A DNA stretch of 24,000 nt from contig CAZRLL010000002.1 of assembly GCA_964600735.1 (NCBI GenBank), forward strand, positions 1 through 24,000, written 5' to 3'. A model generated the notes under the pieces. The model had not been told where the DNA came from and made no database searches. It saw only the letters and a program-made list of their open reading frames with translations. A program made the translations under genes and the position numbers. Below, piece by piece: positions 2,937 to 8,554 of the stretch (positions are counted from its first letter, which is position 1; every line of letters starts with the position of its first letter). This DNA is from an uncultured archaeon. Its GTDB lineage: Archaea > Asgardarchaeota > Heimdallarchaeia > Heimdallarchaeales > Kariarchaeaceae.

Positions 2937-3284
2937 ATGGAATTTTGCGAAGAATGCGATTCATTATTGTTACCCAAAAAAATAAACAACCGAGTTGTTC
3001 CATTTTGTCCCGATTGTAATGAGAGCAAAGAAGAGGGGAAGCTAGGTAAGATTTCTTTTGAAGATGATGAAAGAAAAAAGGATCCTGAAGGTGGAAAATT
3101 ACTTGTGATAGAGAGTGATTCAAATGCGGTTGTTGGTAGACCAAGAAAAGATATGTTATGTCCAAAATGTCAATCTATCCAAGAAATCGAATATTGGGAA
3201 ATACAGACACGAAGTGCAGATGAAGCCCCTACACGCTTCTTCAGGTGTATGAATTGCGACAAAAACTGGAGAGAATACGATTAA
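2937..3284 (+). CDS. tfs: Transcription factor S (TFS; TFIIS/RpoM-like transcript cleavage factor)
   Basis: The N-terminal Zn-ribbon is CEECDS...CPDC. The C-terminal TFIIS-type Zn-ribbon is CPKC...(QTRSADEAPT acidic hairpin)...RCMNCDKNW. The 115-aa length is typical. Confidence 0.9.
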   Translation: MEFCEECDSLLLPKKINNRVVPFCPDCNESKEEGKLGKISFEDDERKKDPEGGKLLVIESDSNAVVGRPRKDMLCPKCQSIQEIEYWEIQTRSADEAPTRFFRCMNCDKNWREYD

Positions 3285-3303
3285 AAGATTGTAGGGTGAA
3301 GAT

Positions 3304-3633
3304 ATGACATCCCGCGTAAGACCTAAACCTTCAATAGATTTTACGATAATTGATATACCTGAGGGAAATTCATCTATCAGAATAATTTCATCGGTAGTAG
3401 TGTGTTCAGGTAATTTCCTTATCTTAAATGATGGTACAAGTCAAATTACAATAGCGCTTGGACCATATCATTGTTCTCAATTTTCTATAGGTAAGTTATA
3501 CCGTTTTATCATTTCAATTACCAAATTAGAGGATAAAATTGAGGGGATTTTGATATCTTACAACAGTATTACAAAAAATCAAGCCCAACGATATAAAAGA
3601 TTGGTAAGACTTGAAAAACGAAATCAAAAGTAA
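3304..3633 (+). CDS. Small beta-rich hypothetical protein, possibly OB-fold; likely co-transcribed with tfs
   Basis: 109-aa ORF starting 20 nt after the tfs stop, with GGGTGA (3294-3299) 4 nt upstream of the ATG. The alternating hydrophobic beta-strand pattern (IRIISSVVVCSGNFLILNDGTSQITIAL...LYRFIISITKLEDKIEGILISY) resembles small OB-fold proteins. I have no firm family assignment. Confidence 0.4.
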   Translation: MTSRVRPKPSIDFTIIDIPEGNSSIRIISSVVVCSGNFLILNDGTSQITIALGPYHCSQFSIGKLYRFIISITKLEDKIEGILISYNSITKNQAQRYKRLVRLEKRNQK

Positions 3634-3677
3634 TGAATTATTAATAATTAAATTATTAGTCAAATGAGGTTCTATTA

Positions 3678-4511
3678 ATGACTGTAAAAATTTTTCTTGA
3701 TCAAGGCAAATTGATGAAAACGATTGTTGATGCGATGGTTTCAGTATCAGAAGATGTCACCATAGAGATAAGCGAAAACGGTTTTCGGGCTCAGGCAAGG
3801 GATATCGGAAATGCAATTGTGGTGGATACATTTCTGGATAAGCAAATATTTTCTAAAATTGATGCTCCATCATCAGGGATTTTTCACATTGATTTAGAAG
3901 ATTTTTCAGATTTTATAAAAACATCAAAAAGTGACGATTCCTTGAAAATTGAGGATAATACTGATAGAGGAACTCTAGATCTGGAGCTAAAATCATCAGA
4001 AATTACAAAACGCATACAATTGAGGTTAAACGACGTAAAAAACCATAGATTTATGAAAATTATTGACCGAAAATTCTTATCTGGTTGCGAGATGGATGCA
4101 GGTTTATTTGCAGATGCGGTTAAAGCTGCAGAATTGGGTGATGAACATGTTACATTAACTCATGATAAAGAAAAATTACATTTTACCGCTGCCTCAAATA
4201 CACGTTCTGCAGAAGCAACTATACATTATATCGATAATAACAAAGTTGGAAATGTAAATTTCGAAACTGGGACCTATCAAAACCGAAGTGGTGATACAGT
4301 GCAAATACCTGAAGTTCACGAAGCTACCTTTGGTTTGAAGTTTCTTAAACGAATATCAAAAATAGGAAGATCAGGTCAAACACTAAAATTAAGTATGACT
4401 AATAGTGAACCGTTAAGGATCATATACACTATTGATGATGAAGATAATGAAGAACAGGGGTATGTTGCATTTGCTGTGGCTCCCAGAGTTCTTGAAGATG
4501 ACATCATGTAA
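3678..4511 (+). CDS. pcn: DNA polymerase sliding clamp PCNA
   Basis: The N-terminus (...LMKTIVDAMVSVSEDVTIEISENGFRAQARDIGNAIVVDTFLDKQIF) and C-terminus (YVAFAVAPRVLEDD) match the PCNA pattern (GI...amD.shValv.l.l / f.lAPrie). At 277 aa it is slightly longer than usual because of an insertion in the C-terminal half. The SD-like TGAGGT lies 7 nt upstream. Confidence 0.85.
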   Translation: MTVKIFLDQGKLMKTIVDAMVSVSEDVTIEISENGFRAQARDIGNAIVVDTFLDKQIFSKIDAPSSGIFHIDLEDFSDFIKTSKSDDSLKIEDNTDRGTLDLELKSSEITKRIQLRLNDVKNHRFMKIIDRKFLSGCEMDAGLFADAVKAAELGDEHVTLTHDKEKLHFTAASNTRSAEATIHYIDNNKVGNVNFETGTYQNRSGDTVQIPEVHEATFGLKFLKRISKIGRSGQTLKLSMTNSEPLRIIYTIDDEDNEEQGYVAFAVAPRVLEDDIM

Positions 4512-4543
4512 TAAAAATATAGAAAATTAGGGAAATTGGTTAT

Positions 4544-5095
4544 ATGACTATTTATGAAATATTGGTTGCTTCATGGAAAAGGGAAAAAGAGGGATTGCAA
4601 TTAAATACGATGGATACTAATTTTTTTGAAAAATGTAGGGCCTACATTAACCACCTTGAAACGCAAGCAAGTAGTGAAACAGACATTTCAATAGCAAAAT
4701 TATTTAATAATCGATGGGTACGAGTTAACTATCTATTTAACGATCTAATTACTCTTAGATTACAAAAACAATTTCAAATTATCATTAATGGAGATAAATC
4801 ACCCAGTCCAATTCCCTTTGAGGAAGAGCATTTGAGAAATCAACTGATCAATTTACTTTTAACATATAGAGATGAAGTCATCGGGATTAAAACAAAAATT
4901 CAAAATGAGAATGATCAAGATGAAGGTGACAATTATGAATTGGTTCATTTTTCTCAAAATGAGAATTTGCAAACGGTAGGAGTCGATTTAAGAAAATATG
5001 GACCTTTTGAAAAAGGTGATTTGGCAATTATACCAAAAGAAAATATGAGATACTTCATGAAAAGATCTAAAGTAGATCACATCAAAATCGATTAA
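4544..5095 (+). CDS. GINS complex subunit, Gins51 (Gins15)-type
   Basis: The A-domain is at the N-terminus (YEILVASWKREKEGLQLNTMDTNFFEKCRAYINHL...LITLRLQKQ). The small beta B-domain is at the C-terminus (ELVHFSQNENLQTVGVDLRKYGPFEKGDLAIIPKENMRYFMKRSKVDHI). That A-then-B order marks the Gins51 family. It lies adjacent to PCNA. Confidence 0.7.
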   Translation: MTIYEILVASWKREKEGLQLNTMDTNFFEKCRAYINHLETQASSETDISIAKLFNNRWVRVNYLFNDLITLRLQKQFQIIINGDKSPSPIPFEEEHLRNQLINLLLTYRDEVIGIKTKIQNENDQDEGDNYELVHFSQNENLQTVGVDLRKYGPFEKGDLAIIPKENMRYFMKRSKVDHIKID

Positions 5096-5175
5096 TAATT
5101 AATAGTCTGTTTAGAGTTATAATTATAGCCGCCATGATAATAAATTATAGACTCTAATAGCTCTTATTCTTTTAT

Positions 5176-5196
5176 ATTTGTTTTTTTCTTTTTATC
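5176..5196 (+). terminator. T-rich terminator region downstream of GINS
   Basis: The TTTGTTTTTTTCTTTTT tract lies in the convergent intergenic region. Confidence 0.3.
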
Positions 5197-5241
5197 TACA
5201 GAAATTTATCATAGGCAGTTGAATTATTAATTATCCTAAAT

Positions 5242-5433
5242 TTAATTTAATATATCTATAACCTCTGCATGTAAACGAGCTTTACCACCCATTGGTTCGG
5301 CGATTAGTGCATTGCAATCATTTGATGAGCATTCAATTTTTGTTTTTGCGTGATCAAAAACTATCATCTCATTTTCACACTCGGAACATTTTACTCTAAG
5401 AAAACTGGAATTGGGTTTTGGGATCAAATTCAT
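5242..5433 (-). CDS. rps27e: Ribosomal protein eS27 (S27e)
   Basis: 63 aa with the C4 zinc ribbon FLRVKCSECENEMIVFDHAKTKIECSSNDCNALIAEPMGGKARL, which is characteristic of S27e. Confidence 0.9.
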   Translation of the reverse strand: MNLIPKPNSSFLRVKCSECENEMIVFDHAKTKIECSSNDCNALIAEPMGGKARLHAEVIDILN

Positions 5434-5692
5434 AATTCAAAAATGAACTTTTAGCAATTAAATCTATAGATAACGCGTCAAGTACGAAAAGAATTTTCCG
5501 TTTGAATTGATACGAATTAAGTCAGGAAACCCTAATTATCAAATGGGATAATTATTTAACAAGTTAGTAAAGGATTTAAAATAATATAGATAATGATGTT
5601 GGATGTAATCACATGGTGTTTGGATTCAATAATAATATATGCTGTAAACCAATACCTAATTAACCTCATTGTGTCTTTTAATTTAATGTAAT

Positions 5693-7186
5693 ATGTCTCT
5701 GGAAATAACTCCTCTTAGATTAATTATGTTTACATCAGAAACTTGTGTATACTGTCCACCAATTGAAACAATAGTGAGAGAAGTTGTTGGATCTGGTATG
5801 CAGGATCTGGTTCATGTATCAACAATTGATATTGACGATGATCATGAAGCTAGTTCTCGATATCAAATTCAATCTCTTCCAACCTTAGTCATAAATGATG
5901 AAATTGTCTTGCAGGGTGGAATGGATGATGATTCAGTTAGAGATCTATTGTGGTCAACATTATTAAATCAAGCGATAACTTCAGAACAGGCAATTACGTT
6001 GACGAAAAATTCTTTACTTGCACTTACTATGAACGCAATGGATTCTCTCAATGGTTCAAAAGTATTAAGACCATCGGTAGGAGACTATACTCATATCGGT
6101 GTATTTCAGCAATATCTTTTGAGTCTTTATAGCTTAGATCCATTAATTCCACATTTGTTGTACAAAGCAGGCTATCAATTGGGAATGTTTGGGATGATGC
6201 ATCATGTGTTGACATTACTCAATCCTAAACTTGGCAGAACCCCTAAAAGAGATCTAAGATTCAAACACTTAGCCTATGCTTTAACTCTCTATTTTTCGGA
6301 TAGGGAGATTCTTCCAACATTACTTGCAGAATCTGCGAACGTTGTTAAAATTACAGACACCCAGATAGATCTCCGAGTAAATGACATGGCTTCAGCGTCT
6401 ATTAGGATCGATGTAGGTGAACCCATGTGTGGATTTTTTGCTGGACAACTTGCTGGAGTTACTGCTGCGGTTATGGGGATGTCTGGAACTGCTGCTAGTT
6501 GTGAAGAATTAATTTGTATGGCTAATGGTGGTGAATATTGTCTATTCCAAATATCTATTGCTGGGGAAGAATTAGCAGAAAAACCACTTCCTCCACTTGA
6601 AAATAAGGAGGAACGTGCAGGAAGGAGGCAAAACTTCTATGAAGTCATTCATGAAATGACAAATATTATTCAAGATAGTAATTTGATGATTAAAACTCAA
6701 CGAGTTAAAGTTAGAGACTTCATTCACATATCTGTTTTACAACCAATAATAATATCAATTAAATTCCTAGATAGATTTTCAGGGACAATTTTGTATAATG
6801 GAGGAAAAGAATTGGGAGTATTTGGACCGGGGAAACAGTTACTAATTCGATTGGTTCAAGAGGAAGGAATACAAGTTCCCGTGCCTCTAGAAAAAGCTGT
6901 AAATCTATTATTGGCATATTTAAGACACCCGACAACCATGCTTGGGAGAGAACATGGTCTAGTTAGGCTGAATCACGAAGACGATGACAGTTATACCTTA
7001 GAAATTGATGATAGTGTAAGTATCGCCGGAATGCAGACAGCAGAACTTAATAAAACATTTTGTGATTTTCAAGCTGGATTTATTGCTGGTAGATTATATA
7101 TTCTTGTTGGAAAGGATCCAATAGTGAAAGAAATAGAGTGCCAAGGAACTGGACATCAAACTTGCAAATATCGAATTACGGTTTAA
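5693..7186 (+). CDS. Fusion protein: N-terminal thioredoxin/glutaredoxin-like domain (CVYC) followed by two V4R (4-vinyl-reductase / Bet3-like) domains
   Basis: The Trx-fold signature is RLIMFTSETCVYCPP...SLPTLVIND (CxxC at 5744-5755). There are two copies of the V4R C-terminal signature: CGFFAGQLAGV...CEELICMANGGEYCLFQISI and CDFQAGFIAGRL...IECQGTGHQTCKYRITV. Confidence 0.7.
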   Translation: MSLEITPLRLIMFTSETCVYCPPIETIVREVVGSGMQDLVHVSTIDIDDDHEASSRYQIQSLPTLVINDEIVLQGGMDDDSVRDLLWSTLLNQAITSEQAITLTKNSLLALTMNAMDSLNGSKVLRPSVGDYTHIGVFQQYLLSLYSLDPLIPHLLYKAGYQLGMFGMMHHVLTLLNPKLGRTPKRDLRFKHLAYALTLYFSDREILPTLLAESANVVKITDTQIDLRVNDMASASIRIDVGEPMCGFFAGQLAGVTAAVMGMSGTAASCEELICMANGGEYCLFQISIAGEELAEKPLPPLENKEERAGRRQNFYEVIHEMTNIIQDSNLMIKTQRVKVRDFIHISVLQPIIISIKFLDRFSGTILYNGGKELGVFGPGKQLLIRLVQEEGIQVPVPLEKAVNLLLAYLRHPTTMLGREHGLVRLNHEDDDSYTLEIDDSVSIAGMQTAELNKTFCDFQAGFIAGRLYILVGKDPIVKEIECQGTGHQTCKYRITV

Positions 7187-7401
7187 ACGGATATTTTTAA
7201 TAAATCAAATATTAAATAAAATAATTAAATTTAATTTTGATATCCGAACTTTAAATGTTAATGATATCATCATTATTTTTTCACTTTCATTATTATTAAA
7301 GAAAAAATGATAAAATACCTTATTTTCCAATTGAATAGCATACCAGAGCTGATATTAATGAATAATCATTTAAACTATGAATCACAAATAGTTATGTAAG
7401 C

Positions 7402-7770
7402 ATGGCCCGCCGTCGTAAAAGATCATTCGATAGTTTGGATGATCTGCTACCTAATGAATTAATTGAATCAACAAGTGGCTCGACTGTGGTAGAACTTAAA
7501 GCAATTGTGAATCAACTTGAAAAACAAATGCAAGATATGATTGATAAATATGAGAAGCAAATTGAACAACTATCTGAAAGATTAGAATCAATCGAAAGTG
7601 ATTTTGGTCAAGTTGTTGAGACACTAAAATCACCTGATGCTTCTTCAGGGGGTCAATCTATTCCTTCTAGTCCGGTTAGTAGTTCAATGCCGCCACCAGC
7701 AGCAGCCACTACACCACCATCAACCACTCCCCCACCATCAGGGGGACCCAAACCTCCATCTTTAGGTTAA
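7402..7770 (+). CDS. Hypothetical coiled-coil protein with a Pro/Ser/Thr-rich low-complexity tail
   Basis: 122 aa. It has a basic N-terminus (MARRRKR), a heptad-like stretch (LKAIVNQLEKQMQDMIDKYEKQIEQLSERLESIESDF), then SSMPPPAAATTPPSTTPPPSGGPKPPSLG. That tail is encoded by a locally GC-rich patch (~7688-7760). I saw no SD, and coding status rests on ORF length only. Confidence 0.4.
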   Translation: MARRRKRSFDSLDDLLPNELIESTSGSTVVELKAIVNQLEKQMQDMIDKYEKQIEQLSERLESIESDFGQVVETLKSPDASSGGQSIPSSPVSSSMPPPAAATTPPSTTPPPSGGPKPPSLG

Positions 7771-8020
7771 CTTTCAAATCATCACAATGTAAAATAGAAA
7801 ATTAATTAATTATATCAATTAATGAATGTTTAATTTTTTATAAGGCTTCAATCAAAATTATTTCATTGGAAAATTATCGCCAAAATTTTTAATATCTAAA
7901 AATTACCCAGATAGTTATCCTAACAGTTATAGATTACAAAATGTTGGAGTTAATATTGGGTAATCGATCTTTGGAGATTAGTTAATCCCATCCTTTCTGA
8001 CCATTTTCGGACGGTACTAG

Positions 8021-8554
8021 ATGACATCAATTTCAGAAGAGCAACGTCAAACACTTTTGAGTATGGTAGAAGATGTAGCTGGACCAGAAGTTCGAGAGGT
8101 AACTATTATTTTGCTCTCCCATAAAGGAGAGTTAACAGATGAAATTATTGCAGAAGAGTTGGATATAAAACTAAATCAAGTTCGAAAAGCCCTATACCGA
8201 CTCCACGATCTGGAATTAGCAACTTTCCGCAGGATTAGGGATAAAACTACAGGTTGGTTCATATTTTATTGGAAGTTGCATCCTGAAAAAATAACAAGTC
8301 TTGTATTCACAAAACAACGAAATGTTTTGGAGAAAATTCAGACTCGATTGAGTTATGAGGAAGGTAACATGTTTTTCAGCTGTTTAACACCCAGTTGCAA
8401 CAGAGTGACTTTTCAGAATGCTATGGAACAAGATTTTATCTGTGTAGACTGTGAAGAAAGATTGGAATCTTTTGATAATTCAAAAATAATTAAAGTACTA
8501 AGATTAAAGGTCGAACAACTAAATAAAATCCTAATAGAAGAAGATAGGGAATAA
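8021..8554 (+). CDS. tfe: Transcription factor E alpha (TFE; TFIIE-alpha homologue)
   Basis: The winged-helix region is LTDEIIAEELDIKLNQVRKALYRLHDLELATFRRIRDKTTGWFIFYWKL. It is followed by a Zn-ribbon-like segment, FSCLTPSCNRVTF...FICVDCEERL. The 177-aa length is typical of TFE-alpha. Confidence 0.85.
   Translation: MTSISEEQRQTLLSMVEDVAGPEVREVTIILLSHKGELTDEIIAEELDIKLNQVRKALYRLHDLELATFRRIRDKTTGWFIFYWKLHPEKITSLVFTKQRNVLEKIQTRLSYEEGNMFFSCLTPSCNRVTFQNAMEQDFICVDCEERLESFDNSKIIKVLRLKVEQLNKILIEEDRE

Follow-up and report, generated by a model that had tools for sequence, protein, structure and literature searches.

What does an archaeal cell do with a protein that joins a thioredoxin to two V4R domains in a single chain? 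This question is raised by a gene at positions 5693 to 7186 (+ strand) of a 24,000-nucleotide stretch of DNA (positions 1 to 24,000 of contig CAZRLL010000002.1, assembly GCA_964600735.1; hereafter the window) from an uncultured member of the Kariarchaeaceae, a family of Asgard archaea in the Heimdallarchaeia. We find that the encoded protein of 497 amino acids (P0001; Trx-V4R-V4R, with Trx for thioredoxin) is a real, conserved and Asgard-restricted variant of the V4R sensor family that has so far been uncharacterised. The reading that we favour, and to which we give about an even chance of being right, is that it works as a soluble cytoplasmic sensor or adaptor, with a zinc-thiolate redox switch in its V4R part that would be reset by its own thioredoxin and with a Rab-like GTPase as a likely partner in Kariarchaeaceae and Lokiarchaeia.

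Rab-like GTPases number in the dozens in Asgard archaea, which also possess several folds of the transport protein particle (TRAPP) type, and the pairing of regulators with GTPases is not established. Genome layout is of no help in matching them in the Asgard archaeon MK-D1, where GTPase genes do not as a rule share operons with those for Roadblock, longin or TRAPPC3 proteins, so that partners are hard to predict (Tran et al. 2024, PMC10933270). The Trx-V4R-V4R family offers a concrete and testable pairing of one V4R/Bet3-fold protein, one thioredoxin and one Rab-like GTPase because it has a split-gene counterpart in Lokiarchaeia and a conserved GTPase neighbour in Kariarchaeaceae. If the V4R pair is a redox- or ligand-gated regulator of the GTPase, it would reveal a role of the Bet3 fold before TRAPP; if not, the family would still add a compact design of thiol/zinc sensor that had not been characterised before, in which a switch of the MsvR type carries its own reductant. 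Full-text searches (V4R with Asgard, thioredoxin and GTPase) found no publication on this architecture or on the Lokiarchaeial gene cluster described below, in agreement with an earlier note, made from the DNA sequence alone, whose author knew of no characterised protein with this domain combination. The study that solved Thor-TRAPPC3, an Asgard TRAPPC3 protein, likewise mentions no thioredoxin fusion and no tandem V4R (Tran et al. 2024, PMC10933270).

A thioredoxin and two V4R modules in one chain

The open reading frame at 5693-7186 is a genuine gene, read from the list of open reading frames with their translations and matched by 37 homologues as well as by proteins in 88 of the 400 Asgard genomes that we searched. 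Its ATG at 5693 is the earliest possible start downstream of an in-frame stop, and the window around it is AT-rich, with a GC content of about 30-38%. The N-terminal part (amino acids 8-90; 5714-5962, + strand) is an MJ0307-like thioredoxin-fold domain that matches Pfam Thioredoxin_3 (PF13192) at amino acids 15-84 with 33.5 bits (cut-off 24.8) and has 1fo5 as its top match in the PDB (E=7e-12). MJ0307-type thioredoxin also ranks first among the NCBIfam models for the whole protein, yet its score against this equivalog (TIGR00411; 49.8 bits) stays below the cut-off of 92.75, so that we consider the domain related to MJ0307 thioredoxin but not the same protein.

Two V4R modules of about 200 amino acids each make up the rest of the chain. 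Module 1 comprises amino acids 93-292 (5969-6568, + strand) and includes part of a long helix (amino acids 79-119) continuing from the thioredoxin domain, while module 2 comprises amino acids 303-497 (6599-7183, + strand). Pfam V4R (PF02830) matches the protein with 65.6 bits (gathering cut-off 31; E=4.3e-18) in two stretches, which define the cores of module 1 (6410-6556) and module 2 (7001-7180) and score 43.4 and 29.1 bits, respectively, against the same cut-off when taken singly. These two stretches are the only V4R matches in the genome from which the window derives. An alignment of the two modules with hhalign covers 186 columns at 23% identity (probability 100%, E=1.2e-44), and judged from this homology, the modules are the products of an old internal duplication.

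A word-index search retrieved the 37 homologues at 100-33% identity, nearly all of them about 480-510 amino acids long and with the same domains; those with named sources come from Candidatus Kariarchaeaceae, Heimdallarchaeota and Borrarchaeum and are annotated as "V4R domain-containing protein" or "predicted hydrocarbon binding protein". The architecture proposed in the earlier note thus stands, and it is far beyond chance because homologues down to 33% identity share it and because the two modules align so strongly with each other. Across the Asgard genomes, the family profile finds the fused protein in the Heimdall group and a few other families. It is near-universal in the window's own family, the Kariarchaeaceae (f1; 9 of 11 genomes), and in f3 (30/31), f4 (3/3), f5 (18/22) and f7 (12/12), and likewise in f6, f13, f28, f32 and f33; the same profile finds none in the 135 genomes of f20 (Lokiarchaeota/Promethearchaeota, judged by source names) and none in f12 and f19. 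How widespread the combination is, a point that the earlier note had raised, was further addressed by an exhaustive profile search of 1.84 billion representative sequences, which returned only 42 clusters at E<=1e-30, of which some 30 are near full length; lower-ranked matches are tandem V4R proteins without thioredoxin and single V4R proteins.

Conserved cysteines and predicted metal sites

All residues highlighted in the earlier note are present: the CVYC active-site motif (C18 and C21; 5744-5755, + strand), the cis-proline of the thioredoxin fold in SLPTLV (P63; 5879-5881, + strand), one C-x-F-x-A-G motif in each V4R module (C246GFFAG and C457DFQAG) and a later pair of cysteines in each (C275/C283 and C483/C491). 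The conservation of CxxC and V4R cysteines among orthologues, which the note had named as a point to check, is borne out in an alignment of 33 sequences and a further set of 19 more diverse orthologues from genomes. C21 and P63 are invariant among the 33, and C18 is absent only from one N-terminally truncated sequence; in the diverse set, both cysteines and the cis-proline are invariant in 16 of 16 orthologues.

The later cysteine pair, which the earlier note had presented as such, is present and conserved, but the alignments suggest that it is not a free dithiol and instead forms part of a predicted four-ligand C/E/C/C metal site. Each module holds a C...E-x2-C-x7-C pattern whose residues line up with those that bind zinc in MopR and PoxR, two sensors of phenol. 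The predicted site of module 1 (6428-6541, + strand) consists of C246 (6428-6430), E272 (6506-6508), C275 (6515-6517) and C283 (6539-6541) and aligns with C155/E178/C181/C189 of MopR, of which the three cysteines are named as zinc-coordinating (PMC9556785). That of module 2 (7061-7165, + strand), which aligns with the ligands of both PoxR and MopR, consists of C457 (7061-7063), E480 (7130-7132), C483 (7139-7141) and C491 (7163-7165). All eight residues are invariant in the 33-sequence alignment, and E-x2-C-x7-C is invariant in both modules across the 19 diverse orthologues. The first ligand is replaced by aspartate in module 2 of family f5 (L053, L055 and L057) and in module 1 of f32 (L064), a swap that would keep metal binding and fits a metal site. 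The metal is probably zinc, as it is in Thor-TRAPPC3 (PMC10933270). As a separate observation, the f5 orthologues carry an insertion of about 20 amino acids at the end of the thioredoxin domain.

Fold and relationship to known V4R and Bet3 proteins

The earlier note described the V4R modules as related to Bet3 and TRAPP and suggested structure prediction and fold comparison as a check. An AlphaFold2 model built from the family alignment is confident and compact (pLDDT 87.6), with a predicted template modelling score (pTM) of 0.87 that indicates only a defined overall arrangement. In this model, module 1 starts with a helix of 41 residues that directly continues the last helix of the thioredoxin domain, and the two modules match in their helix-and-sheet patterns. 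Foldseek comparison to the PDB returns thioredoxins for the N-terminus. For a single module, the top V4R-fold matches are the sensor domains of MopR, PoxR and DmpR with template modelling (TM) scores of 0.5-0.6 (MopR 0.60), next to TRAPPC3 chains (6aq3, 7b6d_A) with target-normalised TM scores of 0.51-0.59 and MJ1460 with 0.53. The compact model and the fold match to TRAPPC3 are thus in place, but the similarity to TRAPPC3 is no better than that to MopR or PoxR.

At the level of sequence, profiles of the modules match only MJ1460 (E about 5e-7, top for both modules), PoxR and MopR among PDB entries, and no TRAPPC3 chain is found for either module at E<=10. The Bet3 family (PF04051) is not among the Pfam matches of the protein at E<=1; a PF04051 search of the window's own genome also finds nothing, which is weak evidence because the control genomes cannot register a eukaryotic family. 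Since there is no PF04051 signal and the module profiles match only MJ1460, PoxR and MopR, the modules are, as far as profile comparison can tell, prokaryotic V4R domains of the MsvR/MJ1460/PoxR type, with a likeness to Bet3/TRAPPC3 at the level of superfamily and fold only. Of the similarity claimed in the earlier note, the V4R match and the Bet3-type fold are therefore retained, while a sequence-level relationship to Bet3 and TRAPP is not.

Each of these relatives shares some features with the Trx-V4R-V4R protein and lacks others. The stand-alone archaeal V4R protein MJ1460 (PDB 2osd/2oso), which heads the PDB matches of both modules by sequence, has a single module, no thioredoxin and a histidine as first metal ligand. 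The phenol-responsive NtrC-type regulators MopR, PoxR and DmpR have the same fold and matching C/E/C/C zinc-ligand positions and act as dimers, but they are bacterial, contain AAA+ sigma-54 activator and helix-turn-helix domains that are absent from our protein, and have no thioredoxin. Thor-TRAPPC3, TRAPPC3 and Bet3 share a two-layer alpha/beta fold, dimers formed through N-terminal helices and internal cavities, with zinc bound in the Asgard members (PMC10933270), and the family is linked to Rab GTPases by function in eukaryotes and by hypothesis in Asgard archaea. However, the zinc site of Thor-TRAPPC3 consists of four cysteines instead of C/E/C/C and was lost in eukaryotic TRAPPC3, and none of these proteins is fused to a thioredoxin or arranged in tandem in one chain. 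Bacteriochlorophyll 4-vinyl reductase BchJ (TIGR02019) was considered as a further relative and rejected (13 bits against a cut-off of 74.3; E=0.07).

A possible redox switch with an attached reductant

The closest working precedent is the methanogen-specific V4R regulator MsvR together with the thioredoxin system, and it is for this reason that we favour a zinc-thiolate V4R pseudo-dimer with an attached reductant. Like our protein, MsvR carries a C-terminal V4R domain with conserved cysteines, and the V4R part of MsvR ranks second in the NCBIfam search of the whole protein and first for its V4R region. H2O2 oxidises the cysteines of MsvR, and the protein regains its function when the thioredoxin system reduces them again (PMC7278568); there, thioredoxin acts in trans, whereas it is fused to the V4R modules here. 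MsvR further differs in having a winged-helix DNA-binding domain and a single V4R domain. Our protein has two V4R modules and no DNA-binding domain, and no helix-turn-helix family appears in its Pfam scan. It is not a member of the MsvR family itself (NF053755), with 49 bits against a cut-off of 220 and only model positions 163-236, the V4R part, aligned.

In the mechanism that we envisage, the two homologous V4R modules, each held by a Cys/Glu/Cys/Cys metal site, would form a single-chain pseudo-dimer with the redox-active thioredoxin joined rigidly to its N-terminus. Oxidants would attack the zinc-thiolates and cause metal loss or disulfide formation, upon which the V4R pair would change shape and alter its binding of a protein partner or of a hydrophobic ligand in its cavities. 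Cellular thioredoxin reductase would recharge the tethered CxxC thioredoxin, which would then reduce the cysteines and reset the switch, so that the mechanism of MsvR plus thioredoxin would be combined in one polypeptide. The switch may in addition be gated by a ligand, and its output in Kariarchaeaceae and, with split genes, in Lokiarchaeia would plausibly be the neighbouring Rab-like GTPase.

Several lines of evidence support redox control, which the earlier note had put forward as an idea: CxxC and cis-proline are invariant, the metal ligands are kept, MsvR provides a precedent, and Lokiarchaeia encode thioredoxin and V4R as adjacent genes. Moreover, the window's genome encodes a genuine thioredoxin reductase (contig C86:12964-13875; 399 bits, cut-off 343), and the Trx-V4R-V4R gene of family f7 precedes a gene for a Bcp-type peroxiredoxin.

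A split counterpart in Lokiarchaeia

A single-sequence search with module 2 gave one weak match in 61 Lokiarchaeial genomes, and we used Pfam and profile searches instead. Pfam V4R finds 30 loci in 25 genomes of f20. Seven of them share the gene order GTPase, thioredoxin (about 99 amino acids, with CxxC), V4R (about 160 amino acids, single module) and GTPase; an eighth (L107) has only the downstream GTPase, and the eight loci together span four genera. In all five Lokiarchaeial genomes that were searched with a profile of our thioredoxin domain, the top genome-wide match is the thioredoxin gene of this cluster (E 1e-13 to 1e-17, versus 1e-9 to 1e-11 for the next), and the profile of each V4R module has the V4R gene of the cluster as its best or sole match in the same genomes. 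Because these neighbouring genes are the best genome-wide matches to the domains of our protein, the comparison points to a fusion/fission relation in which two adjacent Lokiarchaeial genes correspond to one Heimdall-group chain with a duplicated V4R. The clusters differ from the fused form in having separate genes, a single V4R of about 160 amino acids and a second GTPase upstream; the order of thioredoxin, V4R and GTPase is colinear between Lokiarchaeia and Kariarchaeaceae.

Cluster genes of one Lokiarchaeial genome appear at NCBI under the consecutive accessions MCK4686895-97. At another locus (L098), a TBP gene follows the GTPase-Trx-V4R-GTPase cluster, and the upstream GTPase gene (L098:269-781; G178:C43:72707-73213) contains an in-frame TAG that may reflect a pseudogene, a sequencing error or recoding.

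A Rab-like GTPase as neighbour in Kariarchaeaceae

In seven of the nine assessable genomes of the Kariarchaeaceae, two genes come after the Trx-V4R-V4R gene on its strand, first one for a Ras/Rab-family GTPase of 185-190 amino acids and then one for an orthologue of a 122-amino-acid protein that the window also encodes (7402-7770, + strand). Three metagenome contigs have the same order of V4R, GTPase and coiled-coil genes. The 122-amino-acid protein is basic, proline-rich and predicted to form a coiled coil, has orthologues in eight loci and is the operon partner of the GTPase in related genomes, where the two genes are 6-96 bp apart; it may be an effector or adaptor of the GTPase. The Kariarchaeaceae GTPases linked to V4R form a single orthologous group in our tree, and their top PDB matches are Thor-Rab, Ypt7, Rab11, Ypt31/32 and Rab1. 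It is the retention of this V4R-GTPase-coiled-coil order, despite outer flanks that differ among the loci, that supports a link between the GTPase and the V4R protein.

In the window itself, 215 bp separate the V4R gene from the gene for the 122-amino-acid protein, and this gap contains no GTPase gene. The GTPase is in place at L007, a locus syntenic with the window (TFS...GINS...S27e...V4R...TFE...ESCRT, the last for the endosomal sorting complexes required for transport). The window's genome has an orthologue on another contig (G000:C13:21397-21936, - strand, equal to L008:1495-2043; 182 amino acids, 78% identity) that nests within the orthologous group of linked GTPases in the tree and has an epimerase-like gene on one side and a P-type ATPase gene on the other, both unrelated neighbours. 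The window thus presents a naturally occurring case in which the GTPase gene of the module has been relocated.

These neighbourhoods invite the question whether the protein acts mainly on the Rab-like GTPase, which it could regulate or localise as a guanine nucleotide exchange factor (GEF), a guanine nucleotide dissociation inhibitor (GDI) or an effector scaffold, with the V4R pseudo-dimer acting like a Bet3-family dimer and the thioredoxin as a modulatory add-on. The earlier note had already suggested that the tandem modules could mimic such a dimer. The Bet3-type fold similarity to TRAPPC3, the adjacency of a Rab-like GTPase that is conserved in Kariarchaeaceae and, for the split genes, in Lokiarchaeia, and the resemblance of the linked GTPase to the TRAPP substrates Rab1, Rab11 and Ypt31/32 all agree with this view, as does the structure of Thor-TRAPPC3, a Zn-bound homodimer with internal cavities that dimerises like TRAPPC3/C6 (Tran et al. 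2024, PMC10933270). Yet PF04051 gives no signal, and most families with the fused gene as well as the window lack an adjacent GTPase. The GEF surface of TRAPP needs longin subunits, and no longin gene is adjacent to the Trx-V4R-V4R gene in the window. The strict conservation of CxxC further suggests that redox chemistry is central and not accessory, and overall we regard a TRAPP-like main function as improbable.

A bolder proposal would extend the redox switch to an ancestral Asgard module of thioredoxin, V4R and Rab-like GTPase that is split in Lokiarchaeia and fused in the Heimdall group. There, a redox-gated V4R dimer would directly control the nucleotide state or localisation of the GTPase and represent a prokaryotic forerunner of TRAPP-Rab pairs that predates eukaryotes. 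This seems unlikely to us, though worth stating.

Evidence that weighs against a redox switch coupled to a GTPase

A number of observations speak against our favoured reading of a redox switch with a GTPase as partner. Regarding the switch, the zinc site of MopR is considered purely structural, so that the predicted site need not be a switch (PMC9556785), and the aspartate that stands in place of the first-ligand cysteine in f5 and f32 speaks against disulfide chemistry there. Regarding the GTPase, a GTPase neighbour is absent from the window and from one related genome (G053), and in the 5 kb on either side of the gene, no adjacent GTPase is present in f3, f4, f5, f6, f7, f13, f28, f32 and f33; the only GTPase seen there in those families is 1.7 kb upstream at one f3 locus (L050), with other genes intervening. 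The wide gap of 155-697 bp between V4R and GTPase genes in Kariarchaeaceae probably means that they are transcribed separately. A tree of 88 rows places the linked GTPases of Kariarchaeaceae in a Heimdall-side expansion and not beside those of the Lokiarchaeial clusters, which by score rank only about 2nd to 10th; it does not show the two groups to be orthologous, but an approximately unbiased (AU) test does not reject their union (p=0.434). Small GTPases are abundant, with at least 35 in the window's genome and about 70-90 candidates in Lokiarchaeial genomes.

A structural zinc site as in MopR would also suit a plain ligand-binding V4R protein whose thioredoxin fold is structural or guards the zinc-thiolates during folding and has no role in signalling, and the variation of gene neighbourhoods among families points in the same direction. 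We consider this very unlikely given that CxxC and cis-proline are invariant in orthologues down to about 33% identity and that a dedicated thioredoxin gene is retained beside the V4R gene in Lokiarchaeia.

Gene neighbourhoods in other families

Outside the Kariarchaeaceae, the neighbours of the fused gene differ from family to family. In family f7 (L068:6497-9520), the Trx-V4R-V4R gene is followed on one strand by genes for the Bcp-type peroxiredoxin, phosphatidylserine decarboxylase, a CDP-alcohol phosphatidyltransferase and a KaiC-like ATPase, a neighbourhood that combines redox and membrane-lipid genes. It bears on another explanation, in which a ligand of hydrophobic or thiol-reactive nature, such as a lipid, a quinone or a compound of the persulfide type, would occupy the V4R cavities and be reduced by the fused thioredoxin in place of the protein's own cysteines. 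Cavities of V4R and Bet3 proteins bind phenols and palmitate (PMC10933270), the two modules share a conserved polar motif (R-x3-GD-x2-H...Q) that lies apart from the metal site, and the annotation of homologues as hydrocarbon-binding comes from the Joint Genome Institute (JGI). However, V4R domains with catalytic activity are not known, f7 is the only family with these lipid genes nearby, and sequence allows no inference about a ligand; a role as small-molecule oxidoreductase or carrier therefore appears rather doubtful to us, and we retain the redox switch as the preferred explanation.

The neighbour of the gene in f3 encodes a small membrane protein, and those in f28/Borrarchaeum are DHDPS and LeuA-like genes. 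Part of f5 has a Roadblock/LC7 gene directly upstream in divergent orientation (L056:3922-4305, - strand; also L057, L058 and L084), and a rhomboid gene as well. The window contains a Roadblock gene, too (1478-1924, - strand), at a distance of 3.8 kb upstream of the Trx-V4R-V4R gene. We rejected this linkage as a functional hint because it is confined to part of f5 and 3.8 kb off in the window, which is too sparse.

Genomic context in the window

Genes for archaeal information processing are found in the window together with a complete ESCRT cluster of the Asgard type. The genes around the V4R gene are, in order, a divergent rpS27e, the Trx-V4R-V4R gene itself, the gene for the 122-amino-acid protein, TFE and the ESCRT cluster. 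ESCRT genes lie near the Trx-V4R-V4R gene only in the window and at L007 and in no other family, and we discarded this linkage as a functional hint as well. A block common to the window (2937-8554) and L007 (L007:5293-11391) comprises TFS, an open reading frame of 109 amino acids, PCNA, GINS51, rpS27e, the V4R gene, the coiled-coil gene, TFE and ESCRT, with the segment from TFS to S27e inverted in L007 relative to the window.

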